Shown: positions 3,575-63,848, counted from the first letter of the stretch. The stretch is 64,000 nt of DNA from Escherichia coli (GCF_013315695.1 NZ_CP054353.1), one strand, 5' to 3'. Notes: generated by a model not told the origin, from the letters alone. Made by a program: numbers and translations.

Positions 3575-4969
3575 ATGAAAAAATCGACATTATCTTTAGC
3601 CATCGGTTTATTATTGGCATGTAGTACCGGAATGGCAAAAACACAGCATTTAACGCTGGAACAACGCATGGCATTGCTGGAAGAACGCCTGGAAGCGGCA
3701 GAAATGCGGGCAGCAAAAGCAGAGAGCCAGGTTAAACAGCTGCAGACACAACAAGCCGCTGAGATCCGCGAAATTAAGGCTGCCCAGGGCAATACGCCGG
3801 TAAATGGACAGGCAACGGCGGAATCTGCAAAGAAAAATTCCACCTCACCTAATCTTTTGCTCTCAGGTTATGGCGATTTAAAAATCTACGGCGACGTAGA
3901 ATTTAATATGGATGCGGAAAGTAATCATGGCCTGCTGGCAATGACCAACGCTGATGTGAATAGCGATCCCACTAATGAACAGTGGAATCTCAATGGTCGT
4001 ATTTTGTTAGGTTTTGATGGTATGCGAAAACTGGATAATGGCTATTTCGCCGGGTTCTCCGCACAACCGCTGGGGGATATGCACGGTTCAGTAAATATCG
4101 ATGATGCGGTTTTCTTCTTTGGCAAAGAAAACGACTGGAAGGTCAAAGTAGGCCGTTTTGAAGCCTACGATATGTTCCCGCTGAATCAGGATACCTTTGT
4201 TGAACATTCCGGTAATACTGCGAACGATCTTTATGACGATGGCAGCGGTTATATCTATATGATGAAAGAGGGCCGCGGGCGCTCTAACGCTGGCGGTAAT
4301 TTCCTCGTCAGCAAACAACTTGATAACTGGTATTTTGAATTAAACACGTTACTTGAAGACGGAACATCTTTATATAATGACGGTAATTATCATGGACGCG
4401 ATATGGAGCAGCAGAAAAATGTTGCTTATCTGCGTCCGGTAATTGCCTGGTCGCCGACAGAAGAATTCACCGTTTCCGCAGCGATGGAAGCGAACGTGGT
4501 AAATAATGCTTATGGTTATACCGATAGCAAGGGTAATTTTGTCGATCAGTCCGATCGTACCGGCTATGGTATGAGCATGACCTGGAATGGCCTGAAAACG
4601 GATCCGGAAAATGGCGTCGTGGTTAATCTTAATACCGCCTATTTAGATGCTAATAATGAGAAAGATTTCACTGCCGGGATTAACGCGCTGTGGAAACGTT
4701 TCGAGCTGGGTTATATCTACGCGCACAATAAGATTGATGAATTCAGCGGTGTAGTTTGTGATAACGACTGCTGGATTGATGATGAAGGGACGTACACCAT
4801 TCACACCATTCATGCGTCTTATCAGTTCGCTAATGTGATGGATATGGAGAACTTTAATATTTACCTCGGGACGTATTACTCCATTCTGGATAGCGACGGT
4901 GATAAAAAACACGGTGATGATACTGATGACCGTTACGGCGCACGCGTTCGCTTTAAATACTTCTTCTGA
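3575..4969 (+). CDS. Putative carbohydrate-selective outer-membrane porin (ScrY/OprB/LamB-like) with N-terminal coiled-coil extension; absent from the K-12 frvA-rhaM junction
   Basis: 464-aa ORF; signal peptide MKKSTLSLAIGLLLACSTGMA; heptad-like segment LEQRMALLEERLEAAEMRAAKAESQVKQLQ; Gly/Tyr/Asn/Asp-rich body typical of beta-barrels; C-terminus RFKYFF ends in aromatic Phe; locally AT-rich. Confidence 0.5.
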   Translation: MKKSTLSLAIGLLLACSTGMAKTQHLTLEQRMALLEERLEAAEMRAAKAESQVKQLQTQQAAEIREIKAAQGNTPVNGQATAESAKKNSTSPNLLLSGYGDLKIYGDVEFNMDAESNHGLLAMTNADVNSDPTNEQWNLNGRILLGFDGMRKLDNGYFAGFSAQPLGDMHGSVNIDDAVFFFGKENDWKVKVGRFEAYDMFPLNQDTFVEHSGNTANDLYDDGSGYIYMMKEGRGRSNAGGNFLVSKQLDNWYFELNTLLEDGTSLYNDGNYHGRDMEQQKNVAYLRPVIAWSPTEEFTVSAAMEANVVNNAYGYTDSKGNFVDQSDRTGYGMSMTWNGLKTDPENGVVVNLNTAYLDANNEKDFTAGINALWKRFELGYIYAHNKIDEFSGVVCDNDCWIDDEGTYTIHTIHASYQFANVMDMENFNIYLGTYYSILDSDGDKKHGDDTDDRYGARVRFKYFF

Positions 4970-5333: not shown

Positions 5334-6158
5334 TTACAGCGCCAGCGCACTGGCGAGTGGTGTAACACCGAAACGCTGGCCGAGCGCTATCAGCTCTTCA
5401 CGACTGATGGTCTGTTTCATGCCGCCCATCGAATAAACCTTCACTAATACTTGTGCTGATTTTTCTGCGGTGTCGATTAAACCGAATGTTTCATCCAGTG
5501 TCGGACCGCTGCCGAAGACGCCGTGGAAGGGCCACAACACCAGCGAATGTTTTTGCATTTCCTGTGCGGTCGCCTGGCCGATTTCGTCCGTGCCGGGCAC
5601 CATCCACGGCAAAATGCCGACGCCATCCGGGAACACTACCAGACACTCGGTGCTGCCTTCCCAAAGCTGGCGAGTGAAGAGCGCGGTGTCGTTTTCCAGT
5701 ACGTAGGTAAGGGCGATCAGGTTGGTGGCGTGGCAGTGCATGATCACCCGATCTTTACCGTTGGTAGCTTTAATGCGCTCGCAGTGGGAGAGAAAGTGAG
5801 CCGGAAGTTCAGAAGTTGGAACGGCTTCGTTGGTTAGCCCCCAGAGAATATGGTAGCCCGCGCCGTCGCTGTCGACTTTTACGATGCCTAAGTTAGCCGC
5901 AGGATCAAGCTGGACGTTACGAAAGAATTTGCCGGAGCCGGTGACAATAAACGGTGTATTTGCCAGTAAAGGCATGGGCTGGCTGAGCGGGATATAGCGC
6001 GGTTGTGCATGAAAGTTGTCGTGATACGGTGCGATATCGGCGTCATCCAGGCGCAGCGTCAGGTTACCACCATTGCGCTCGTCCCAGCCTTTCAGCCAGG
6101 CGTCGGTGGTGGCTTTGATCATTCCCTGGACAAACCAGGACTGGGTAATGTTTTGCAT
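5334..6158 (-). CDS. rhaD: Rhamnulose-1-phosphate aldolase
   Basis: ORF 5334..6248 trimmed to internal Met ([37 protein letters not shown]) for 274 aa; class II aldolase; rha operon. Confidence 0.93.
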
Positions 6159-6240
6159 GTTCTGTGTTCCTGTAAATTCGGTGTTGTCGGATGCACGACC
6201 CGTAGGCCGGATAAGGCGCTCGCGCCGCATCCGGCAGTGT

Positions 6241-9253
<3,013 letters not shown>

Positions 9254-13088: not shown

Positions 13089-13207
13089 GATGTGGTTTTG
13101 ATCACTTTTATTGATCAAATGAATGTCTATCTTCGTTTCCATCAACACTGATGCTCCGTTGAGGAATGACGCATCAGCCCTTAAAAATATGCCGACAGGT
13201 GATGGAA

Positions 13208-14109
13208 ATGCAGATAAAACGCTCGATTGAGAAAATCCCGGGGGGGATGATGCTCGTCCCGCTATTCCTTGGCGCACTGTGCCACACCTTCTCGCCGGAG
13301 GCGGGGAAATATTTTGGATCATTCACCAACGGGATGATTACCGGTACGGTGCCCATTCTGGCGGTGTGGTTTTTTTGCATGGGGGCGTCAATAAAATTAA
13401 GCGCGACGGGAACGGTATTGCGTAAATCCGGTACGCTGGTGGTAACAAAAATTGCCGTCGCGTGGGTGGTTGCGGCAATTGCCTCGCGCATTATTCCGGA
13501 ACATGGTGTTGAAGTTGGATTCTTTGCCGGACTTTCAACGCTGGCGCATTTGTGTTGATGTCATTGGAGTCCGGGCCGCTCATGACGATGATTATTCTGG
13601 GCACTGCCGGGATTGCCTCGTTTGAACCGCATGTTTTCGTCGGCGCAGTATTACCGTTCCTGGTGGGCTTTGCCCTTGGGAACCTTGACCCTGAATTACG
13701 AGAATTTTTCAGCAAAGCGGTGCAGACGCTGATTCCATTCTTTGCCTTCGCGCTGGGCAATACCATTGATTTGACTGTAATTGCCCAGACAGGTTTGCTG
13801 GGGATCCTGTTGGGTGTGGCAGTAATTATCGTGACCGGTATTCCGTTGATTATCGCCGATAAATTGATTGGCGGTGGCGATGGCACTGCCGGAATTGCCG
13901 CTTCCAGTTCCGCAGGGGCCGCGGTAGCGACACCTGTGCTGATTGCAGAAATGGTGCCTGCGTTTAAACCGATGGCTCCGGCAGCAACTTCGCTGGTCGC
14001 GACGGCGGTCATTGTGACTTCGATTCTGGTGCCAATTCTTACCTCTATCTGGTCACGTAAAGTCAAAGCCAGAGCGGCGAAAATCGAAATTTTAGGTACG
14101 GTGAAATAA
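13208..14109 (+). pseudogene. kdgT: 2-keto-3-deoxygluconate permease gene kdgT, disrupted by an internal deletion with frameshift
   Basis: Track splits it into 13166..13558 and 13552..14109 in different frames; first part begins [13 protein letters not shown], second resumes at [12 protein letters not shown]; the span encodes about 300 codons against 327 aa for K-12 KdgT as I remember it. Confidence 0.7.
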
Positions 14110-14257: not shown

Positions 14258-14932
14258 ATGCGATATCCGGTTGATGTATACACAGGCAAGATTCAGGCTT
14301 ATCCCGAAGGCAAACCCAGCGCAATTGCCAAAATCCAGGTTGATGGTGAGTTGATGCTGACGGAGCTGGGGCTGGAAGGTGACGAGCAGGCGGAGAAAAT
14401 GGTTCACGGCGGGCCAGACAGAGCGCTGTGTCATTATCCTCGTGAGCACTATCTCTACTGGGCGCGGGAATTTCCGGAACAGGCGGAGTTGTTTGTTGCG
14501 CCTGCGTTTGGTGAAAATCTCTCAACCGACGGTCTGACGGAAAGTAATGTTTATATGGGCGATATTTTCCGCTGGGGAGAGGCATTAATTCAGGTCAGCC
14601 AGCCGCGCTCGCCTTGCTATAAACTCAATTACCATTTTGATATCAGCGACATAGCGCAGTTGATGCAAAACACGGGTAAAGTGGGGTGGTTGTATAGCGT
14701 AATTGCACCAGGGTTGGTATCTGCTGATGCGCCACTGGAGTTGGTTTCCCGTGTCAGTGATGTGACCGTGCAGGAGGCTGCCGCCATCGCATGGCATATG
14801 CCGTTTGATGACGATCAGTATCACCGTTTACTCTCCGCCGCCGGGTTATCGAAAAGCTGGACGCGGACGATGCAAAAGCGCCGACTGAGCGGCAAGATCG
14901 AAGATTTTTCCCGCCGGTTGTGGGGAAAATAA
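14258..14932 (+). CDS. yiiM: MOSC-domain protein YiiM
   Basis: ORF 14228..14932; start at MRYPVDVYTGKIQAYPEGKP for 224 aa. Confidence 0.88.
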   Translation: MRYPVDVYTGKIQAYPEGKPSAIAKIQVDGELMLTELGLEGDEQAEKMVHGGPDRALCHYPREHYLYWAREFPEQAELFVAPAFGENLSTDGLTESNVYMGDIFRWGEALIQVSQPRSPCYKLNYHFDISDIAQLMQNTGKVGWLYSVIAPGLVSADAPLELVSRVSDVTVQEAAAIAWHMPFDDDQYHRLLSAAGLSKSWTRTMQKRRLSGKIEDFSRRLWGK

Positions 14933-14942
14933 CCCCCGGAGT

Positions 14943-15026
14943 GTAGGCCTGATAAGACGCTATCGGCGTCGCATCAGGCATCCTGCTCAAATGCCGGATG
15001 CGGCGTAAACGCCTTATCCTGCCTAC
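14943..15026. repeat. BIME: two inverted REP palindromic units
   Basis: gtaggcctgataagacgc...gcatcaggc and gccggatgcggcgtaaacgccttatcctgcctac between yiiM and cpxA. Confidence 0.7.
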
Positions 15027-15036
15027 AATGCGGAGT

Positions 15037-16410
15037 TTAACTCCGCTTATACAGCGGCAACCAAATCACCAGCCGTAAACCGCCCAGCGGGCTGTCTTCC
15101 GCCTTCACCCAACCACGGTGCTGCTGAATGGCGGTTTCAACAATCGCCAGCCCCAAACCTGTACCGCCAGATTCACGATCGCGCGCTTCATCGGTACGAT
15201 AGAACGGGCGGAAAATCTGTTCGCGATCTTCCGGGCTAACGCCAGGACCATCGTCATCCACCGTAATGGTGATACCGTCTTTATCTACCGCGAAGCCTAC
15301 TTCAATCTTCGTATGGGAATAACGCAGGGCATTACGAACAATGTTTTCCAGCGCACTTTCCAGGGCGTTCGGGTTGCCGTACAGCGGCCACGGCCCAGGC
15401 GGGAAGTTAACTGTCAACGACTTGCCCATTTGCTCGGCTTCGAACGCCGCGTTATCCAGCACTTCACTCCACAACTGATTGGCTTTGATGGTCTCGCTAA
15501 CCAGCGCGTTTTTCTGCTGATTACGTGACATCACCAACAGGTCGTTAATCATGCTGTCCAGACGTTGCGCTTCGGTTTCAATACGCTCCAGTTCCTTGCT
15601 TTCACCGCTACGACGGCGCAGTAACGCCGTACCCAGTTGTAGACGCGTCAGCGGGGTGCGCAGCTCGTGAGAGATATCAGAAAGCAGACGCTGCTGAGAG
15701 GTCATCATGCGCTCCAGCGCGGTGACCATCTGGTTAAAACTGGCACCAGCGGCAAGGAATTCCTGTGGCCCCGCTTCCAGTTCCGGGTGCTGGCGTAAGT
15801 TTCCCTGGGCAACTTCATCGGCAGCGTTTTTCAGCTTACGCGCCGGTTTTGCCAGACTCCAGGCCAACCACAACAGCAGCGGCGTACTGACCAACATGGT
15901 GACAATCAGCAGTAATAGCGGGCGGTCAAACAGTAAGTTAATGAAATCGGATTGAGAACTGCTGGCCGGACGAATCAGATAAAGTTGGTAATTATCTTCG
16001 CCATCACGCACGGAGAACGGACCGACCAGTTCCACGCGGCCATACTTTTTCTTCTGCGGATGATCGGCGTTATCGGCCTGACCAATAAAGTTACGAATGA
16101 TCTGCATTTCGCTGCGTTCAGCGCCGATCACGCGGCCTTCGGTGGTCACCAATAACAAACGCTGTCCTGGCGGTGCCCACTTATCAATCGCCCGGAACAG
16201 ACGCCGCCACCACATTAAATCATTGGGCGGATCGTTCGCCAGCTCCGCTTCGACATGCTGCTCAATCATCAGACCCTGACGCTGTTCGCTATCCAGAAGC
16301 TCGGTCATCTGGCGTGAATCGAGCTTGGGTAACATCAAAACCAACATCAACACCAGCGCCAGCGTCAGCCAGAAGATGGCGAAGATGCGCGCGGTTAAGC
16401 TGCCTATCAT
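15037..16410 (-). CDS. cpxA: Envelope-stress sensor histidine kinase CpxA
   Basis: 457-aa ORF; two TM segments, HAMP and HisKA (SHELRTPLTRL) / HATPase_c domains. Confidence 0.95.
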   Translation of the reverse strand: MIGSLTARIFAIFWLTLALVLMLVLMLPKLDSRQMTELLDSEQRQGLMIEQHVEAELANDPPNDLMWWRRLFRAIDKWAPPGQRLLLVTTEGRVIGAERSEMQIIRNFIGQADNADHPQKKKYGRVELVGPFSVRDGEDNYQLYLIRPASSSQSDFINLLFDRPLLLLIVTMLVSTPLLLWLAWSLAKPARKLKNAADEVAQGNLRQHPELEAGPQEFLAAGASFNQMVTALERMMTSQQRLLSDISHELRTPLTRLQLGTALLRRRSGESKELERIETEAQRLDSMINDLLVMSRNQQKNALVSETIKANQLWSEVLDNAAFEAEQMGKSLTVNFPPGPWPLYGNPNALESALENIVRNALRYSHTKIEVGFAVDKDGITITVDDDGPGVSPEDREQIFRPFYRTDEARDRESGGTGLGLAIVETAIQQHRGWVKAEDSPLGGLRLVIWLPLYKRS

Positions 16411-17105
16411 GAAGCAGAAACCATCAGATAGCCGCGACCACGCAAGGTTTTAAACCACGGGTGACCATCTTTACGATCCGGCAGTTTACGACGCAGGTTG
16501 GAAATGTGCATATCAATAGCGCGGTCGAAAGGCGTCAGGCGTTTGCCCAGCACTTCCTGGCTTAAATGCTCACGGGAAACCACCTGACCCAGATGCTGTG
16601 CCAGCAAATAGAGCAGGGTAAACTCAGTGCCGGTTAACTCCAGCGTTTGCCCGTCGAAGCTGGCTTCCTGACGGCCTGGATTCAGCACTAAGGCATCAAC
16701 TTCCAGTGTCGGTGAACCGTTGTCGTTGTTTTGCTGTTGCTCGCTCCAGTGCGAACGGCGCAGGATCGCGCGAATACGTGCCACCAGCTCACGATCATTA
16801 AACGGTTTCGGGAGATAGTCATCTGCGCCCAGCTCAAGGCCGAGAACGCGATCAAGTTCACTGCCGCGCGCCGTCAACATAATGACAGGCGTCTGGTGTG
16901 TCTGGCGAAGTGCTTTTAATGTGTCGATACCATTTTTCTTCGGCATCATTACATCAAGCAAAAGTAAATCAATGCTGTCGTCCAGAAGATCAAGCGCCTG
17001 TTCCCCATCGTGGGCAACAATCACGTTGAAGCCTTCCATCTCGAGCAGCTCCTTTAATAGGGAAGTCAGCTCTCGGTCATCATCAACTAACAGGATTTTA
17101 TTCAT
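16407..17105 (-). CDS. cpxR: Response regulator CpxR (OmpR family)
   Basis: 232-aa ORF MNKILLVDDDRELTSLLKELLEMEGF...; overlaps cpxA by 4 nt. Confidence 0.96.
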   Translation of the reverse strand: MNKILLVDDDRELTSLLKELLEMEGFNVIVAHDGEQALDLLDDSIDLLLLDVMMPKKNGIDTLKALRQTHQTPVIMLTARGSELDRVLGLELGADDYLPKPFNDRELVARIRAILRRSHWSEQQQNNDNGSPTLEVDALVLNPGRQEASFDGQTLELTGTEFTLLYLLAQHLGQVVSREHLSQEVLGKRLTPFDRAIDMHISNLRRKLPDRKDGHPWFKTLRGRGYLMVSAS

Positions 17106-17160
17106 TGTTTAAATACCTCCGAGGCAGAAATTACGTCATCAGACGTCGCTAATCCATGAC

Positions 17161-17175
17161 TTTACGTTGTTTTAC
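17161..17175 (-). promoter_or_regulatory. CpxR box (GTAAA-N5-GTAAA) in the cpxR/cpxP divergent region
   Basis: Reverse complement of tttacgttgttttac is gtaaaacaacgtaaa. Confidence 0.65.
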
Positions 17176-17254
17176 ACCCCCTGACGCATGTTTGCAGCCT
17201 GAATCGTAAACTCTCTATCGTTGAATCGCGACAGAAAGATTTTGGGAGCAAATG

Positions 17255-17755
17255 ATGCGCATAGTTACCGCTGCCGTCATGGCCTCAACGCTGGCAGTCA
17301 GTTCATTAAGCCACGCTGCTGAAGTCGGTTCAGGCGATAACTGGCATCCGGGTGAAGAACTTACGCAGCGCAGTACGCAGAGCCATATGTTCGACGGCAT
17401 AAGTTTAACCGAACATCAGCGTCAGCAGATGCGAGATCTTATGCAACAGGCCCGGCACGAACAGCCTCCTGTTAATGTTAGCGAACTGGAGACAATGCAT
17501 CGCCTTGTCACCGCAGAAAATTTTGATGAAAACGCTGTGCGCGCACAGGCAGAAAAAATGGCGAATGAGCAAATTGCTCGTCAGGTTGAGATGGCAAAAG
17601 TCCGCAACCAAATGTATCGCCTGTTAACGCCGGAGCAGCAAGCGGTTTTAAACGAGAAACATCAACAACGAATGGAGCAGTTGCGCGACGTGACGCAATG
17701 GCAAAAAAGTTCATCGTTGAAGCTATTGAGTAGTAGCAACTCACGTTCCCAGTAG
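17255..17755 (+). CDS. cpxP: Periplasmic envelope-stress adaptor CpxP
   Basis: ORF 17252..17755; start at second Met ([21 protein letters not shown], signal peptide) for 166 aa. Confidence 0.93.
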
Positions 17756-17764
17756 TAAACCCTG

Positions 17765-17822
17765 TTTTCCTTGCCATAGACACCATCCCTGTCTTCCCCC
17801 ACATGATGTGGGGGTTTTTTTT
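17765..17822 (+). ncRNA. cpxQ: CpxQ sRNA region (processed cpxP 3' UTR) ending at the cpxP terminator
   Basis: About 58 nt after the cpxP stop, ending in hairpin cccccacatgatgtggggg plus T8; identified by position and remembered sequence, boundaries approximate. Confidence 0.5.
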
Positions 17823-17903
17823 ATCCTCAATTTGCCTGCTGCTTAATGCATTGCAGATGATTTGCTTCCGTTATACTACCGTCAGTTGATAGCGGGAGTA
17901 TTT

Positions 17904-18806
17904 ATGAATCAATCTTATGGACGGCTGGTCAGTCGGGCGGCGATTGCTGCGACGGCGATGGCTTCGCTGCTATTGCTGATTAAAATTTTTGCATGGTGGT
18001 ATACCGGGTCGGTGAGTATTCTCGCCGCGCTGGTGGATTCGCTGGTGGATATCGGCGCGTCGTTGACGAATTTATTGGTGGTGCGATATTCCCTGCAACC
18101 TGCCGACGATAATCACTCGTTTGGTCACGGTAAAGCTGAGTCCCTCGCGGCGCTGGCGCAAAGTATGTTTATCTCCGGTTCGGCACTATTCCTGTTTTTG
18201 ACAGGTATTCAACATCTGGTATCTCCAACGCCGATGACAGATCCAGGCGTCGGGGTTATCGTGACAATTGTGGCGCTAATTTGTACGATTATCCTTGTCT
18301 CGTTTCAGCGTTGGGTGGTGCGCCGGACGCAAAGCCAGGCGGTGCGGGCTGATATGCTACATTACCAGTCTGATGTTATGATGAACGGCGCAATTCTGCT
18401 GGCGCTGGGGTTGTCCTGGTACGGCTGGCATCGCGCCGATGCTCTGTTTGCATTGGGAATCGGCATCTATATTTTATATAGCGCGTTACGCATGGGATAT
18501 GAGGCGGTACAGTCATTACTGGATCGCGCATTACCTGATGAGGAACGGCAAGAAATTATTGATATCGTGACTTCCTGGCCGGGTGTTAGCGGCGCTCACG
18601 ATCTTCGCACGCGGCAGTCAGGGCCGACCCGCTTTATTCAGATTCATTTGGAAATGGAAGACTCTCTGCCTTTGGTTCAGGCACATATGGTGGCGGATCA
18701 GGTAGAGCAGGCTATTTTACGGCGTTTTCCGGGATCGGATGTGATTATCCATCAGGATCCCTGTTCCGTCGTACCCAGGGAGGGTAAACGGTCTATGCTT
18801 TCATAA
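17904..18806 (+). CDS. fieF: Cation-diffusion-facilitator Fe/Zn efflux transporter FieF
   Basis: ORF 17862..18806; start at [25 protein letters not shown] for 300 aa. Confidence 0.92.
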
Positions 18807-18986
18807 TCAGTATAAAAGAGAGCCAGACCCGCATTTTGTGTATAAAATACCGCCATTTGGCCTGACCTGAATCAATTCAGCAGGAAGTGATTGTTATACT
18901 ATTTGCACATTCGTTGGATCACTTCGATGTGCAAGAAGACTTCCGGCAACAGATTTCATTTTGCATTCCAAAGTTCAGAGGTAGTC

Positions 18987-19949
18987 ATGATTAAGAAAAT
19001 CGGTGTGTTGACAAGCGGCGGTGATGCGCCAGGCATGAACGCCGCAATTCGCGGGGTTGTTCGTTCTGCGCTGACAGAAGGTCTGGAAGTAATGGGCATT
19101 TATGACGGCTATCTGGGTCTGTATGAAGACCGTATGGTACAGCTAGACCGTTACAGCGTTTCTGACATGATCAACCGTGGCGGTACGTTCCTCGGTTCTG
19201 CGCGTTTCCCGGAATTCCGCGACGAGAACATCCGCGCCGTGGCTATCGAAAACCTGAAAAAACGTGGTATCGACGCGCTGGTGGTTATCGGCGGTGACGG
19301 TTCCTACATGGGTGCAATGCGTCTGACCGAAATGGGCTTCCCGTGCATCGGTCTGCCTGGCACTATCGACAACGACATCAAAGGCACTGACTACACTATC
19401 GGTTTCTTCACTGCGCTGAGCACCGTTGTAGAAGCGATCGACCGTCTGCGTGACACCTCTTCTTCTCACCAGCGTATTTCCGTGGTGGAAGTGATGGGTC
19501 GTTATTGTGGCGATCTGACCCTGGCTGCGGCCATTGCCGGTGGCTGTGAATTCGTTGTAGTTCCGGAAGTTGAATTCAGCCGTGAAGACCTGGTAAACGA
19601 AATCAAAGCGGGTATCGCGAAAGGTAAAAAACACGCGATCGTGGCGATTACCGAACATATGTGTGATGTTGACGAACTGGCGCATTTCATCGAGAAAGAA
19701 ACCGGTCGTGAAACCCGCGCAACTGTGCTGGGCCACATCCAGCGCGGTGGTTCTCCGGTGCCTTACGACCGTATTCTGGCTTCCCGTATGGGCGCTTACG
19801 CTATCGATCTGCTGCTGGCAGGCTACGGCGGTCGTTGCGTAGGTATCCAGAACGAACAGCTGGTTCACCACGACATCATCGACGCTATCGAAAACATGAA
19901 GCGTCCGTTCAAAGGCGACTGGCTGGACTGCGCGAAAAAACTGTATTAA
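18987..19949 (+). CDS. pfkA: 6-phosphofructokinase I
   Basis: ORF 18891..19949; start at [25 protein letters not shown] for 320 aa. Confidence 0.96.
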
Positions 19950-20005
19950 TGATTTCGGAAAAAGGCAGATTCCTTTAGCCTGAAACCGATGACAGAAGCA
20001 AAAAT

Positions 20006-20105
20006 GCCTGATGCGCTTCGCTTATCAGGCCTACATGAATTCTGCAATTTATTGAATTTGCAAACTTTTGTAGGCCGGATAAGGCGTTCGCGCCGCATCC
20101 GGCAT
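20006..20105. repeat. BIME/REP cluster downstream of pfkA
   Basis: gcctgatgcgcttcgcttatcaggcctac and gtaggccggataaggcgttcgcgccgcatccggcat; the track ORF 19989..20186 lies across it. Confidence 0.7.
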
Positions 20106-20268
20106 GGACAAAGCGCACTTTGTCAGCAATATGAGGCGGATTTCTTCCGCCTTTTTAATCCCTCAACATATACCCGCAAGTTATAGCCAATCTTTTTTTA
20201 TTCTTTAATGTTTGGTTAACCTTCTGGCACGCTTTGCTCATCACAACACAACATAAGAGAGTCGGGCG

Positions 20269-21258
20269 ATGAACAAGTGGGGCGTAGGGTTAACATTTTT
20301 GCTGGCGGCAACCAGCGTTATGGCAAAGGATATTCAGCTTCTTAACGTTTCATATGATCCAACGCGCGAATTGTACGAACAGTACAACAAGGCATTCAGC
20401 GCCCACTGGAAACAGCAAACTGGCGATAACGTGGTGATTCGTCAGTCACACGGTGGTTCAGGCAAACAAGCGACGTCGGTAATCAATGGTATTGAAGCTG
20501 ATGTTGTCACTCTGGCTCTGGCCTATGACGTGGACGCAATTGCGGAACGCGGGCGGATTGATAAAGAGTGGATCAAACGTCTGCCGGATAACTCCGCACC
20601 GTACACTTCCACCATTGTTTTCCTGGTGCGTAAGGGCAATCCGAAGCAGATCCATGACTGGAACGATCTGATTAAACCGGGTGTTTCGGTGATCACGCCT
20701 AATCCGAAAAGCTCTGGTGGCGCGCGCTGGAACTACCTGGCTGCCTGGGGCTACGCGCTGCATCACAACAACAACGATCAGGCAAAAGCACAGGATTTTG
20801 TTCGGGCACTGTATAAAAACGTCGAAGTTCTGGATTCTGGCGCGCGCGGCTCCACTAACACTTTTGTCGAGCGCGGAATTGGCGATGTACTGATCGCCTG
20901 GGAAAACGAAGCTCTGCTGGCAGCGAATGAACTGGGGAAAGATAAATTCGAAATCGTCACGCCGAGTGAGTCTATCCTCGCAGAGCCAACCGTGTCGGTG
21001 GTCGATAAAGTGGTCGAGAAAAAAGGCACCAAAGAGGTGGCGGAAGCCTACCTGAAATATCTCTACTCGCCAGAAGGTCAGGAAATTGCCGCGAAAAACT
21101 ACTACCGTCCGCGCGATGCTGAGGTGGCGAAAAAGTACGAAAATGCGTTTCCAAAGCTGAAGTTATTCACCATTGATGAAGAGTTCGGCGGCTGGACGAA
21201 AGCGCAAAAAGAGCATTTTGCTAACGGCGGTACGTTCGATCAGATCAGCAAACGCTGA
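20269..21258 (+). CDS. sbp: Periplasmic sulfate-binding protein
   Basis: 329-aa ORF with signal peptide [19 protein letters not shown]. Confidence 0.94.
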
Positions 21259-40766: not shown

Positions 40767-40825
40767 CGTTAAACGTCCATGTATGAAAAAAGCGGCTGGT
40801 TAACTCCGCGCCGCTCTTTTCCGCT

Positions 40826-45015: not shown

Positions 45016-46109
45016 TCCTGAGCCAGAGAAAGCAGTATTTGCGTAACGCGCCCTGCGGAAAGCGGGGTGCTGTGAGTAAATACTGCTTGTTTATGTAGCC
45101 AGTCGATAAAATGTCTGCTGGTTGCGAAAGAGAGCATTACAGCTTTGCTGTTATTTCCGCCCGTTAATGCACATACCATTTTACGATTTTTGCCCTGAAC
45201 CCAGAGTTGCCACTGATTTTTCCACCAGCCGTGATAAGTTTTTCCCTGAAAACGCCAGGGCGTATTATCGGTATAGTCAGCTATTTCCTCTTCAATAAAC
45301 CAAATTTCACCTTGCTGTTGGCGAAACAGTTCTGCCCAGGCCGTAATAATCGCACCTCTTAAAAAACACTCGTGTGAAATTACATGTGTTTTTACTGTAG
45401 GGAATAAAATATTCAGTACTCTAAAATGCCCGTGCGCTGTGATAACCGGACGCAGAATAACACCTTTAGCATTGCGTTTGAGCGCTGCGCTGCCATACTG
45501 AATTTCATCAAACTGACTGCGGCGTAGAAATTGTGCTTCGCGCATATCAACGCGTTGTACAATATTACTCTCGTGTAACTCTGGTTCTGCATTTCCTCTG
45601 TATCGATAATACAGACTTTCTCCAGCCTGATGCTGCGTGTAATTAGTAGAAAGATGAAGAATATTACCGCGAAGAGCATCAAAACTGATTAAAACATACA
45701 GTTTCTGCCCGCCGCTGGCTCCCTGAAATGGCACCAGAAGAGCAACCGTTTCGATTATTTCAGGAGGCGTTATTTCTTTCTGATATTGTTTAGGTGTCCA
45801 GACTTTTTTGCAGTTACGACATTGAATGCGTTGCGACCCCTGTGGATTGTGGCCATAACAAATCGTCTTTGTGCCATAACATACCGGGCAGAAATGACCT
45901 TTCTCAGTTGCAAAAGTAGATAAGTGAACTGACAACCAGTCACGAAATTGCTGTTCGTCAAACAACGGCGGGTAACTTCCACATGCCCGACAGTGCAGTG
46001 CCGGATAACCCAGTCGATAGTCTGGCCAGCTGTAATCTGTCGAAGTTGGCTGCCCTAAATTACGGCAACCAAACGACTTGCAGGCATTAATCGTAAACAG
46101 AGTCGACAT
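44979..46109 (-). CDS. Uncharacterized protein with two N-terminal CxxC...CxxC zinc-ribbon-like motifs; absent from the K-12 metL-metF junction
   Basis: 376-aa ORF; Cys pairs in CKSFGCRNLG ... CRACGS and CPVCYG ... CRNCKK; 3' end overlaps the metL 3' end by 37 bp (convergent); no confident family assignment. Confidence 0.5.
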   Translation of the reverse strand: MSTLFTINACKSFGCRNLGQPTSTDYSWPDYRLGYPALHCRACGSYPPLFDEQQFRDWLSVHLSTFATEKGHFCPVCYGTKTICYGHNPQGSQRIQCRNCKKVWTPKQYQKEITPPEIIETVALLVPFQGASGGQKLYVLISFDALRGNILHLSTNYTQHQAGESLYYRYRGNAEPELHESNIVQRVDMREAQFLRRSQFDEIQYGSAALKRNAKGVILRPVITAHGHFRVLNILFPTVKTHVISHECFLRGAIITAWAELFRQQQGEIWFIEEEIADYTDNTPWRFQGKTYHGWWKNQWQLWVQGKNRKMVCALTGGNNSKAVMLSFATSRHFIDWLHKQAVFTHSTPLSAGRVTQILLSLAQDYNNCARRLISD

Positions 46110-46235
46110 ATATCACCAACGATTTCACAAGGTCGTTGATTTTGTCCGGCAACGCTCCCTTGTGGATGTGATTGCTCTCACATAAATAATTCTTTCAGAA
46201 CGTAATGTAGCAATCCTTTATCTCACTGGAAGGGA

Positions 46236-47795
46236 TTGTTTATGAAAATTAAAATGCTTGCTGCGGGTATCGCATTAACACTGCCGTTTTGGGCTTGCGC
46301 CAAAGATGTCACCATCATTTATACCAACGACCTCCATGCACATGTAGAGCCTTATAAAGTGCCGTGGATTGCTGACGGTAAACGAGATATTGGCGGCTGG
46401 GCAAATATCACTACGCTTGTTAAACAAGAAAAAGCTAAAAACAAAGCGACCTGGTTTTTTGATGCGGGTGACTATTTTACCGGGCCGTATATCAGCAGCC
46501 TGACTAAAGGCAAGGCGATTATCGATATTATGAATACCATGCCATTCGATGCGGTCACTATAGGTAATCATGAATTTGATCACGGCTGGGACAATACGTT
46601 ATTACAGTTGAGTCAGGCAAAATTCCCGATTGTGCAGGGTAATGTTTTTTATCAGAACAGCAGTAAATCATTCTGGGATAAGCCCTATACCATCATTGAA
46701 AAAGACGGCGTGAAAATTGGCGTGATTGGTTTGCACGGTGTATTTGCCTTTAATGATACGGTATCTGCGGCAACGCGAGTGGGTATTGAGGCGCGTGATG
46801 AAATTAAATGGCTACAACGTTATATCGATGAACTCAAAGGCAAGGTTGATTTGACCGTTGCGCTGATTCACGAAGGTGTTCCGGCCCGCCAGTCCAGTAT
46901 GGGGGGCACAGATGTGCGCCGCGCACTGGATAAAGATATTCAGACGGCAAGTCAGGTGAAAGGGCTGGATATTTTGATCACCGGGCATGCACATGTGGGT
47001 ACGCCGGAACCGATTAAAGTCGGCAATACGCTCATCCTCTCCACTGACAGCGGTGGGATTGATGTCGGTAAACTGGTACTGGACTACAAAGAGAAGCCGC
47101 ATGATTTTACGGTGAAAAACTTCGAGCTTAAAACCATTTACGCCGACGAGTGGAAGCCCGATCCGCAAACAAAACAGGTGATCGACGGCTGGAATAAAAA
47201 GCTTGATGAAGTGGTGCAACAAACGGTCGCGCAATCGCCGGTTGAATTAAAACGTGCCTATGGTGAATCGGCTTCCCTCGGGAACCTGGCGGCTGATGCT
47301 TTACTGGTAGCGGCGGGTAAAAACACCCAATTGGCGTTAACCAACTCTGGCGGCATTCGCAATGAGATCCCCGCAGGGGCGATTACGATGGGCGGCGTCA
47401 TCAGTACCTTCCCGTTCCCCAACGAACTGGTGACGATGGAACTCACGGGTAAACAATTACGCAGTTTGATGGAACACGGCGCAAGTTTAAGTAATGGCGT
47501 TTTACAGGTATCGAAAGGCCTGGAAATGAAGTACGACAGCAGCAAACCGGTTGGTCAGCGGGTAATCACACTGACTCTGAATGGCAAACCCATTGAAGAT
47601 GCGACAGTTTATTCTATTGCCACCCAGAGTTTCCTTGCTGATGGTGGAGATGGTTTTACCGCCTTTACCGAAGGGAAAGCGCGTAACACAACGGGCGGTT
47701 ATTACGTTTATCACGCCGTGGTTGATTACTTCAAAGCGGGTAACACCATCACGGATGAACAGATCAACGGTATGCGCGTGAAAGATATCAAGTAA
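46236..47795 (+). CDS. Secreted bifunctional metallophosphatase / 5'-nucleotidase-like protein (UshA/CpdB family)
   Basis: 519-aa ORF; signal peptide [20 protein letters not shown]; calcineurin-like motifs DLHAH, GDYF, GNHEFD, GHAH; C-terminal 5'-nucleotidase-type motif NSGGIR. Confidence 0.7.
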
Positions 47796-48103
47796 AAGTA
47801 CGTATTGAGTTGATTCATTTGTTTGTTACCCGTTGATTTTGCAGATCCAGTATTCGGCCTACGCGAGGGCGCAGGCCGAATCAGATGCCTTAGCATCACC
47901 ATCCGGTGGCAGGACGTTGTTTTTCGAATAAGCCCAGGTGTCGCTGTGTTGTCAGAATATCAGTCAAAACGTGCGAGGTGGATTGCGCTATAGAGAAATC
48001 TTTTATCGCCTCTAATTAAGATGAGTTTTTTTCAACTTCCCTGATTTTTCCTCACCATCATTGGTCATTTTTCGGTTGACGCCCCTCGGCTTTTCCTTCA
48101 TCT

Positions 48104-53218: not shown

Positions 53219-53365
53219 CTGGTTCGTCCGTGAAAATAAGAGTCACAGATTCGACCTTCCGGGCTAACGATTGTTCTGTAGAGAAAATGTCCAGAAGCGG
53301 ATAAAAAATTCCTGAACAACGTGGGAGTTTCAGACGGGTGATAACGTATAAAAAGTGCTCGAACA

Positions 53366-53471
53366 GTCCCCTCTCCCCTTTGGGGAGAGGGTTAGGGTGA
53401 GGGGAACAGGCCAACTCCGGGGCGAATATTTACCCTCACCCCGACCCTCTCCCTGAAAGGGCGAGGGGGAA
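53366..53471. repeat. GC-rich nested inverted-repeat intergenic element (BoxC/RSA-like enterobacterial repeat)
   Basis: ccctctcccc-ttt-ggggagaggg then gggtgagggg ... ccctcaccccgaccctctccc; the track ORF 53022..53414 lies across it. Confidence 0.55.
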
Positions 53472-53516
53472 AAACATGCCCGCAGTGACGAGTGAGCCAC
53501 TTTGCCTGCACTCTCA

Positions 53517-58146: not shown

Positions 58147-58992
58147 ATGAATGAGTTGGTGCAGATCCTGAAAAATACCCGTCAGCATTTAATGACGGGC
58201 GTTTCACACATGATTCCCTTCGTGGTATCGGGCGGTATTTTGCTGGCGGTTTCCGTCATGTTGTATGGCAAAGGCGCAGTGCCGGATGCCGTAGCCGATC
58301 CGAATCTGAAAAAACTGTTTGATATCGGCGTTGCAGGTTTGACGCTGATGGTGCCTTTCCTCGCCGCTTACATCGGTTATTCCATTGCAGAACGTTCTGC
58401 GCTGGCTCCATGCGCTATCGGTGCTTGGGTTGGTAACAGCTTTGGCGCGGGCTTCTTTGGTGCACTGATCGCCGGGATTATCGGCGGCATTGTGGTGCAT
58501 TACCTGAAGAAAATTCCGGTGCATAAAGTTCTGCGCTCGGTGATGCCAATCTTCATCATTCCTATCGTCGGCACACTGATTACCGCTGGCGTCATGATGT
58601 GGGGGCTGGCGACGCTGATTGGTCGTAAAAATTTCTCCGCAGAAGAGCGCGAAACCGGCAAGGCGGCACTGGTGATGGGCTGTGTTGGCGTTACTGAAGG
58701 GGCGATTCCTTTCGCCGCTGCCGATCCGCTGCGTGTTATTCCTTCCATCATGGTCGGTTCAGTTTGTGGTGCAGTAACTGCGGCGCTGGTCGGTGCGCAG
58801 TGCTATGCAGGCTGGGGTGGTCTGATTGTGCTGCCGGTGGTTGAAGGCAAGCTGGGTTATATCGCAGCAGTGGCTGTCGGAGCAGTGGTGACGGCTGTTT
58901 GTGTGAACGTGCTGAAAAGTCTGGCGCGTAAAAATGGGTCTTCGACTGATGAAAAAGAAGACGACCTGGATTTGGATTTTGAAATTAATTAA
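58147..58992 (+). CDS. frwC: PTS fructose-like EIIC component FrwC, internally deleted allele
   Basis: 281-aa ORF; aligns to the FrvB IIC domain in this window but lacks the central segment that includes the AFDMGGP motif; K-12 FrwC remembered as 359 aa. Confidence 0.75.
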   Translation: MNELVQILKNTRQHLMTGVSHMIPFVVSGGILLAVSVMLYGKGAVPDAVADPNLKKLFDIGVAGLTLMVPFLAAYIGYSIAERSALAPCAIGAWVGNSFGAGFFGALIAGIIGGIVVHYLKKIPVHKVLRSVMPIFIIPIVGTLITAGVMMWGLATLIGRKNFSAEERETGKAALVMGCVGVTEGAIPFAAADPLRVIPSIMVGSVCGAVTAALVGAQCYAGWGGLIVLPVVEGKLGYIAAVAVGAVVTAVCVNVLKSLARKNGSSTDEKEDDLDLDFEIN

Positions 58993-63775: not shown

Positions 63776-63848
63776 GAGGGGAGTTCGATGTAAACATTGC
63801 GGCAGTATCGCATCCGGCAAATAGCGCCAGACGCGATACAAAGGTCAT

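Follow-up and report, generated by a model that had tools for sequence, protein, structure and literature searches.

Short palindromes recur between the genes of a 64-kb stretch of the Escherichia coli chromosome extending from frvX to eptC (hereafter the window, meaning the whole stretch analysed), and they raise a double question: to which family of repeats do they belong, and what might they do at the four junctions where they reside, namely rhaA/rhaD, yiiM/cpxA, pfkA/sbp and glpK/glpX? An initial annotation had described them as repetitive extragenic palindrome (REP) units or bacterial interspersed mosaic elements (BIMEs), ordinary for the species, a source of spurious open reading frames (ORFs), and possibly active as stabilisers or terminators. 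Here, I show that they comprise six copies of the E. coli REP family, i.e. of a high-copy, extragenic, imperfect palindrome, and that none of the six is an intrinsic terminator; they are best read as transcribed elements that would act as barriers to 3'-exonucleases. Taken as a whole, this explanation, which combines REP identity, the arrangement of the units and the roles proposed for them in RNA and DNA, is very probably the correct one.

Gene names, as well as starts and stops, were transferred from the annotation of strain MS 21-1, according to which the four junctions had been named correctly. A 7-kb stretch around the yiiM/cpxA–pfkA finding is 100% identical to MS 21-1, and shares at least 95% identity with almost every one of 5,426 complete E. 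coli genomes. The population figures given below come from evenly spaced samples of the match ranking across these genomes. Likewise, the definitions of the y, z1 and z2 unit types and of the BIME classes are those of Ton-Hoang et al. 2012 (PMC3333891).

Identity of the six units

Each of the six units (U1 to U6) lies between annotated coding sequences. Their boundaries were set by direct reading, half-site Hamming scans and exact searches, and strand follows the orientation in which the GTAG tetranucleotide comes first. A covariance model built from 14 aligned REP units, taken from the window, K-12 and three other strains, was run without filters over the whole window; the six units, which belonged to its training set, score between 38 and 60 bits, and nothing else in the 64 kb exceeds 20 bits, therefore no full unit had been overlooked by the earlier reader. 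The arm pattern GCCKGATRMGRCG, with at most one mismatch, occurs 14 times, as against 1.10 +/- 1.13 expected from 100 shuffles, none of which reached 14; nine of these matches fall in five of the units (none in U4), and the other five are isolated one-mismatch matches elsewhere. An independent generic repeat finder places the same units first among the direct and inverted repeats of the 64 kb, grouped by family.

The genome-wide evidence agrees. The 35-nt y unit is found in at least 40 places per genome in 5,425 of the 5,426 complete genomes, a copy number that contradicts the scarcity of related units by which a REP identity would have been disproved, and that bears out the qualification of these elements as ordinary for E. 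coli. The palindromes had also been placed correctly, or within a few bases, as judged by reading and scans.

The alignment of the 14 units supports a conserved stem: 97.3% of the stem cells are paired, a figure that drops to 23-37% once the partners are slid. Moreover, two stem pairs switch between G-C and U-A from y to z types, columns 10/36 being U-A in seven sequences and G-C in six, and columns 17/29 being G-C in seven and A-U in five. The units of the window measure 30-38 nt (in the alignment, z1 30 nt, y 35 nt, z2 37-38 nt), and five of them (U1-U5) carry the GTAG foot, U6 reading GTAAAT instead. The initial motif, gccggatg...catccggc, is indeed of REP type, but it implies a perfect palindrome, whereas the real units carry a GTAG foot and an internal mismatch (GAT-AA-G against C-GC-ATC); in every canonical unit columns 14-15 (AA) face columns 31-32 (GC), and this 2x2 mismatch is retained even in U6. 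Imperfect palindromy, GTAG, internal mismatch, dispersion in high copy and division into y, z1 and z2 subtypes, all of them features by which REPs are recognised, are present.

Non-complementary stem bases are required for the binding of TnpA-REP (PMC3333891), the REP-associated tyrosine transposase (RAYT) by which REP units would be spread and rearranged. The enzyme is encoded elsewhere in the genome: where present, its gene sits in the REPtron between yafL and fhiA, a locus outside the window, and it is absent from about one third of E. coli strains (PMC3333891).

A BIME-2-type unit and a BIME-1

A single span, 14943-20105, had been given for the finding. It brackets only two of the sites, the intervening genes being unrelated. 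The first site lies between the convergent genes yiiM (14258-14932, + strand) and cpxA (15037-16410, - strand), and is a single BIME-2-type unit. U2, a z2-type REP of 38 nt (14943-14980, + strand, 53.3 bits), has its GTAG foot 10 nt past the yiiM stop; it is joined head-to-head, by a short linker of 11 nt determined by direct reading (TCCTGCTCAAA, 14981-14991), to U3, a y-type REP with one foot substitution (GTAGGCAGG; 14992-15026, - strand, 54.4 bits), whose GTAG lies 10 nt past the cpxA stop on the - strand. An inverse z2 and y pair with a short linker, as expected of BIME-2, is therefore found at 14943-15026. The multiple tandem copies of a BIME-2 are absent, a single unit being present in both the window and K-12, and hence the element is termed a BIME-2-type unit and not an array. 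The site is largely fixed, for 33 of 40 sampled genomes have it as in the window; four carry about 67 extra bp, one of them, upon examination, with an additional z1, and one sample has a pair of BoxC repeats (see below) in place of the REPs.

In the window, the y unit next to cpxA has an intact GTAG foot (CCTAC, 15021-15026), which is mutated in K-12 (CCTGC, positions 13591-13596 of the K-12 extract). Given the published requirement for GTAG (PMC3333891), the K-12 copy would cease to be a substrate of TnpA-REP.

The second site follows pfkA (18987-19949, + strand) and precedes sbp (20269-21258, + strand). It is a BIME-1 in single copy, composed of z1, L linker and y: U4, a z1-type REP of 30 nt (20005-20034, - strand, 48.3 bits) located 55 nt past the pfkA stop, is joined tail-to-tail by a 35-nt L linker (20035-20069), delimited by alignment with other BIME-1 copies, to the second arm, the y-type U5 (20070-20104, + strand, 59.8 bits). 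Inverse z1 and y units around a long conserved L linker, occurring once, are what defines a BIME-1. The element (20005-20104) shows 93% mean column identity to two BIME-1 copies of K-12 (yiiX/metJ and yijF/gldA), and the linker core, GCAAATTCAATA.ATTGCA with A or T at the variable base, is the same in the three copies at all but that one base. The element has the same length in all 29 of the 29 genomes sampled, and a single base differs from K-12 over about 340 aligned bases, a substitution upstream of the BIME.

Within the core of the linker, at 20045-20057 on the - strand, ATTCAATAAATTG departs by one mismatch from the IHF consensus WATCAANNNNTTR. Matches of this quality arise at a background rate of about one per 2 kb of strand; an IHF site in the L linker of BIME-1 has been described (PMC3333891), and the linker probably binds IHF in the DNA. 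An intrinsic terminator of pfkA, not a REP, follows at 20133-20158 (+ strand), where the fold of 20100-20175 contains an 8-bp GC-rich hairpin and a U-run; it sits 28 nt downstream of the BIME, so that the REPs lie inside the 3' untranslated region of pfkA.

Both elements match Rfam families above their gathering scores: naRNA4 (RF02564) matches 14946-15023 at 77 bits (gathering score 59.5) over its full length, model positions 1-77 of 77, and ES036/CssrF (RF02751) matches 20027-20068 at 48.2 bits. The alternative of dedicated small RNA (sRNA) genes, naRNA4-like for the yiiM/cpxA pair and ES036/CssrF for the pfkA linker, instead of generic repeats, draws on these scores and on the report that naRNA4 binds HU and condenses DNA (Qian et al. 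2015, PMC4550694). Yet naRNA4 itself corresponds to one REP325 unit (Y-l-Z2), and what ES036 matches here is the BIME-1 L linker; since both families were built on BIME sequence, any BIME of the same type would match them. The same L core recurs in other BIME-1 copies, the median number of places matched per genome by a query with the U2/U3 pair is 18, and a scan for promoter-like sites beside either element found none. Dedicated sRNA genes are thus very improbable here, and the two matches are explained as repeat-derived, a point of practical use, for automated annotation would call these repeats sRNA genes.

The intercistronic units of rhaBAD and glpFKX

The two remaining sites lie inside operons transcribed on the - strand. 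In rhaBAD, U1 is a solitary y-type REP (6202-6236, + strand, 60.5 bits) between the stop codon of rhaA (6241-7500, - strand; stop at 6241-6243) and the start of rhaD (5334-6158, - strand; start at 6158), and its hairpin begins 5 nt past the rhaA stop codon. The span first assigned to it, 6188-6238, contains the REP, but positions 6188-6201 are unique flank. The spacer measures 82 bp in the window versus 450 bp in K-12, where a y-(z2-y)x4 array of nine units with a 92-bp period is found, and the outer flanks of that array are exactly those of the single y unit of the window. The site is hypervariable: out of 60 records, 11 have the window length, 10 are longer by 92/94 bp, 4 by 184/194 bp, 2 by 276 bp, 15 by about 368 bp (K-12-like) and 11 by 159 bp, while in 6 the alignment breaks and 1 matches a REP elsewhere only. 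The y unit nearest rhaA is retained, at 5 nt from the stop, while the distal array varies. Two candidate explanations for the aberrant classes were rejected, each on one examined example: the class longer by 159 bp is not a REP expansion, for a BoxC pair stands beside the y unit, and the broken alignment is not due to an insertion sequence, two extra z2-y units and a divergent rhaA 3' end being found instead.

In glpFKX, U6 is a degenerate y-type REP (27111-27147, - strand, 37.9 bits) between the stop of glpK (27149-28657, - strand; stop at 27149-27151) and the start of glpX (26004-27014, - strand; start at 27014). With its GTAG foot lost (GTAAAT), it keeps a 9-bp outer stem that starts 6 nt past the glpK stop codon. 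As a megablast query it finds a median of one place per genome, being too diverged to cross-match other REPs by this means. The junction is as in the window in 21 of 30 sampled genomes, and its variants include a canonical y+z2 pair in O157:H7 and a z2 with a y remnant in an ST131-like strain. Ten nt from U6, at 27081-27100, stands a perfect 8-bp GC hairpin (GTGCGGGG-TTGC-CCCCGCAC), free of a U-tract on either strand, which is kept in K-12, O157:H7 and ZH193 while the adjoining REP content changes.

The claim that REPs account for spurious ORFs holds in a mechanical sense, for the longest-ORF calls of rhaD and glpX run upstream through the repeats: 5334-6248 instead of 5334-6158 for rhaD (30 codons beyond the annotated start, through U1), and 26004-27143 instead of 26004-27014 for glpX (43 codons, through U6). 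An antisense ORF of 143 aa (6003-6434) and several ORFs of 25-95 aa also cross REP units. The two over-extended calls are flagged here as a matter of practical relevance to annotation.

REP turnover relative to K-12

The RefSeq copy of K-12 used here is devoid of REP repeat_region features, and the comparison was made by sequence. At yiiM/cpxA, pfkA/sbp and glpK/glpX the architecture is the same in both strains, apart from 1-7 point differences, of which one is a 1-base indel; only rhaA/rhaD departs, with one unit in the window and nine in K-12. Over the shared genes, K-12 has 21 REP units versus six. According to the same covariance model, its further units are located at yiiX/metJ (two), metL/metF (one, weak), yijF/gldA (two) and yijO/eptC (two).

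In the window each of these other junctions has a state of its own. The yiiX/metJ spacer (40767-40825) is without the BIME-1 of K-12 (124 extra bp), which 15 of 30 sampled genomes carry. At metL/metF, a 3-kb island (45017-48026) takes the place of the spacer that holds the weak REP in K-12; this island, absent from K-12, encodes a 519-aa 5'-nucleotidase/metallophosphatase (PF02872, PF00149) and, on the - strand, a 376-aa ORF for which Pfam gives no match. The yijF/gldA spacer (53335-53513, core about 53366-53474) holds an inverted pair of BoxC/PIT/TMECO triplex motifs where K-12 has a BIME-1. Finally, the yijO/eptC spacer, in which K-12 has two complete REPs, contains the 12-nt half-REP remnant TCGCATCCGGCA (63808-63819), which suggests a deletion scar; the candidate at 63806-63819 was rejected as a full unit, being this remnant only. 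The REP pair of yijO/eptC is present in 19 of 30 sampled genomes, and the REP-less state in 10 of 30.

These junctions repeatedly accommodate small repeats, in line with earlier descriptions of BIMEs. The number of REPs per E. coli genome ranges from 286 to 574, with the clade A of K-12 at the high end (PMC3333891), and the contrast of 21 with six units fits this published two-fold spread. The one noteworthy point is the paucity of REPs that the window strain shows over these genes when set against K-12.

Proposed roles in RNA and DNA

Each of the six units is located in a transcribed spacer, either at a 3' end or between cistrons. The predicted fold energies are -17 kcal/mol for U6 alone, -21 kcal/mol for U1 alone and -42 to -46 kcal/mol for the pairs, and the corresponding z-scores range from -2.4 to -6.5 for spacers and REP pairs, with U1 alone reaching only -1.7.

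GC-rich hairpins just past stop codons might be taken for Rho-independent terminators of rhaA, yiiM/cpxA, pfkA and glpK, the more so as reviews list REPs among terminator-like elements (PMC3333891). Nevertheless, a GC hairpin followed directly by a U-tract is seen in none of the six units, according to both direct reading and a terminator scan; the latter also missed the pfkA terminator, a tool artefact, but the absence of calls at the REPs agrees with the reading, in which there are no T-runs. Furthermore, two units reside inside operons whose downstream genes, rhaD and glpX, still need to be transcribed, and pfkA has its canonical hairpin and U-tract beyond the BIME. Termination at these units is extremely improbable, and of the two functions first suggested, stabilisers or terminators, the former fits both the anatomy and the literature (PMC6061677, PMC5927463), while the latter does not.

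REP hairpins are described as 3'-exonuclease barriers within a differential-decay model (PMC6061677, PMC5927463), and it is in such terms that the six units are best read. In the mRNA, the hairpins would stop 3'-to-5' exonucleases and thereby would stabilise the upstream cistrons, i.e. rhaBA relative to rhaD and glpFK relative to glpX; at the other junctions, they would define processed 3' ends for yiiM, cpxRA and pfkA.

A second effect in the RNA would depend on the distance between stop codon and stem, which is 5 nt for rhaA, 6 nt for glpK, 14 nt for yiiM and for cpxA, and 55 nt for pfkA. A REP that begins no further than 15 nt past a stop codon is reported to stall ribosomes at termination and to reduce translation of the gene before it (Liang et al. 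2015, cited through PMC12306157); four units start their stem within this distance, and the element past pfkA does not. The stems at rhaA, glpK, yiiM and cpxA may thus be near enough to lower upstream translation, and are possible translation brakes. An extension of this idea concerns the yiiM/cpxA pair, which could be a bidirectional, translation-coupled brake on CpxA and YiiM, and could set free, from the 3' end of cpxRA, a naRNA-like fragment able to bind HU. It stems from the symmetric placement of GTAG past each convergent stop, and from the full-length naRNA4 match; stalled terminating ribosomes would set the output of CpxA, an envelope-stress sensor, and of YiiM. Such a brake is a long shot, yet if true, it would tie REP content to envelope-stress signalling, tuned by strain-to-strain REP turnover.

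Several observations weigh against the favoured explanation taken as a whole. When screened for differential decay, glpFKX was not among the operons called, glp expression being presumably low in those conditions; U6 is degenerate and without its GTAG foot; strains differ widely in the copies that they carry, the rha array alone extending from one to about nine or more units; and the BIMEs of yiiX/metJ and yijO/eptC are each absent from one third to one half of the sampled genomes. Given such polymorphism in presence and copy number among strains, any host function is dispensable, and most copies would not be needed. Searches of supplementary and full-text literature for site-specific data on the REPs of rhaA/rhaD, glpK/glpX, pfkA and cpxA returned nothing useful.

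The units might instead be neutral or selfish DNA, devoid of host function at these loci and persisting through tolerated hairpins, TnpA-REP or recombination. The extensive polymorphism at the same junctions, the occupation of the same slot by BoxC in some strains, the decay of U6 and the spread of REP numbers between strains with no obvious consequence (PMC3333891) all argue in this direction. The opposite is argued by the constant length of the pfkA/sbp BIME-1 and its single difference from K-12, located outside the BIME, by the persistence of the rhaA-proximal y unit and of its spacing amid a varying array, and by the REP effects on mRNA decay that are documented elsewhere (PMC6061677, PMC5927463). 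Neutrality is, on balance, the less likely state of affairs, albeit one to be taken seriously.

Selection could also have acted mainly on the DNA and not on the RNA, by way of IHF bending at the BIME-1, and of gyrase or HU acting on y/z2 cruciforms to relieve supercoils. The linker of the BIME-1 would probably be bound by IHF, and y units of BIME-2 type would be preferred gyrase sites, as gyrase cleavage is enriched in BIME-2, preferentially at y units, irrespective of transcription (PMC6379681); in addition, positive supercoils build up between convergent genes, and it is between two such genes that the yiiM/cpxA pair is placed. However, the published gyrase enrichment concerns some of the BIME-2 arrays with multiple copies, not a single unit such as the one found here, and the rha array, the best gyrase target, has collapsed to one unit in the window strain. 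A primarily DNA-level role is unlikely, and an RNA-level role would be compatible with it; the barrier to 3'-exonucleases is retained as the preferred reading.

Other features of the window

Apart from the junctions, some observations concern neighbouring genes. Relative to K-12 and to the otherwise near-identical MS 21-1, kdgT bears an 82-bp deletion (13540-13547) bounded by an 8-bp alignment overlap, which splits the gene into ORFs 13166-13558 and 13552-14109; kdgT is probably a pseudogene, and, for the deletion is absent from MS 21-1, the window is not exactly MS 21-1. In frwC (around 58602, ORF 58147-58992), about 232-234 bp are missing with respect to K-12, apparently in frame (281 versus 359 aa). 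A 1.5-kb insertion with respect to K-12, between zapB and rraA (30192-31718), encodes ORFs of 238 and 228 aa, both without a Pfam match and hypothetical in MS 21-1. A RafY-type glycoporin gene (PF16966; 3248-5008, ORF 3575-4969), absent from K-12, is intact here and annotated as frameshifted in MS 21-1. Lastly, Rfam matches at 35157-35214 and 39826-39878 correspond to the ClpQY (hslVU) promoter element and to the L31 (rpmE) ribosomal-protein leader, each located where it is expected.

Comparison with known systems

The types of REP and BIME, their polymorphism and the roles proposed for them have been known since the 1980s, and belong to textbook biology. Other small repeats may share the same ground: BoxC/PIT/TMECO repeats (PMC4666352) are likewise small, GC-rich and extragenic, and occupy the same slots, at yijF/gldA in the window and, in other strains, at rhaD/rhaA and yiiM/cpxA, yet they form a separate sequence family (CCCTC...GGGAGAGGG...GGGTGAGGG), and in the window they lie outside the four sites. 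With respect to function, the closest precedents are the REP stabiliser of malE-malF (Newbury 1987), which the rhaA/rhaD and glpK/glpX units resemble in being intercistronic, and the stop-proximal REP of nrdAB (Liang, Rudd & Deutscher 2015, as cited in PMC12306157), with which the four stop-proximal units of the window share a start no more than 15 nt from the stop codon.

As for arrangement, the pfkA/sbp element reproduces the single-copy z1, L linker and y order of BIME-1 (RIP/RIB), with a putative IHF site that is one mismatch off WATCAANNNNTTR. The yiiM/cpxA element has the head-to-head z2 and y of BIME-2 and of REP325 naRNA4, but as a single unit instead of the usual tandem arrays. The rhaD/rhaA junction of K-12 is a classic 4.5-copy BIME-2, whereas in the window strain this array is cut to one y unit. 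Compared with the REPs, or palindromic units, of E. coli (Stern et al. 1984, Gilson et al., Bachellier et al.), the copies of the window show no essential difference, and only U6, without its GTAG foot and part of the consensus, departs from the canonical form.

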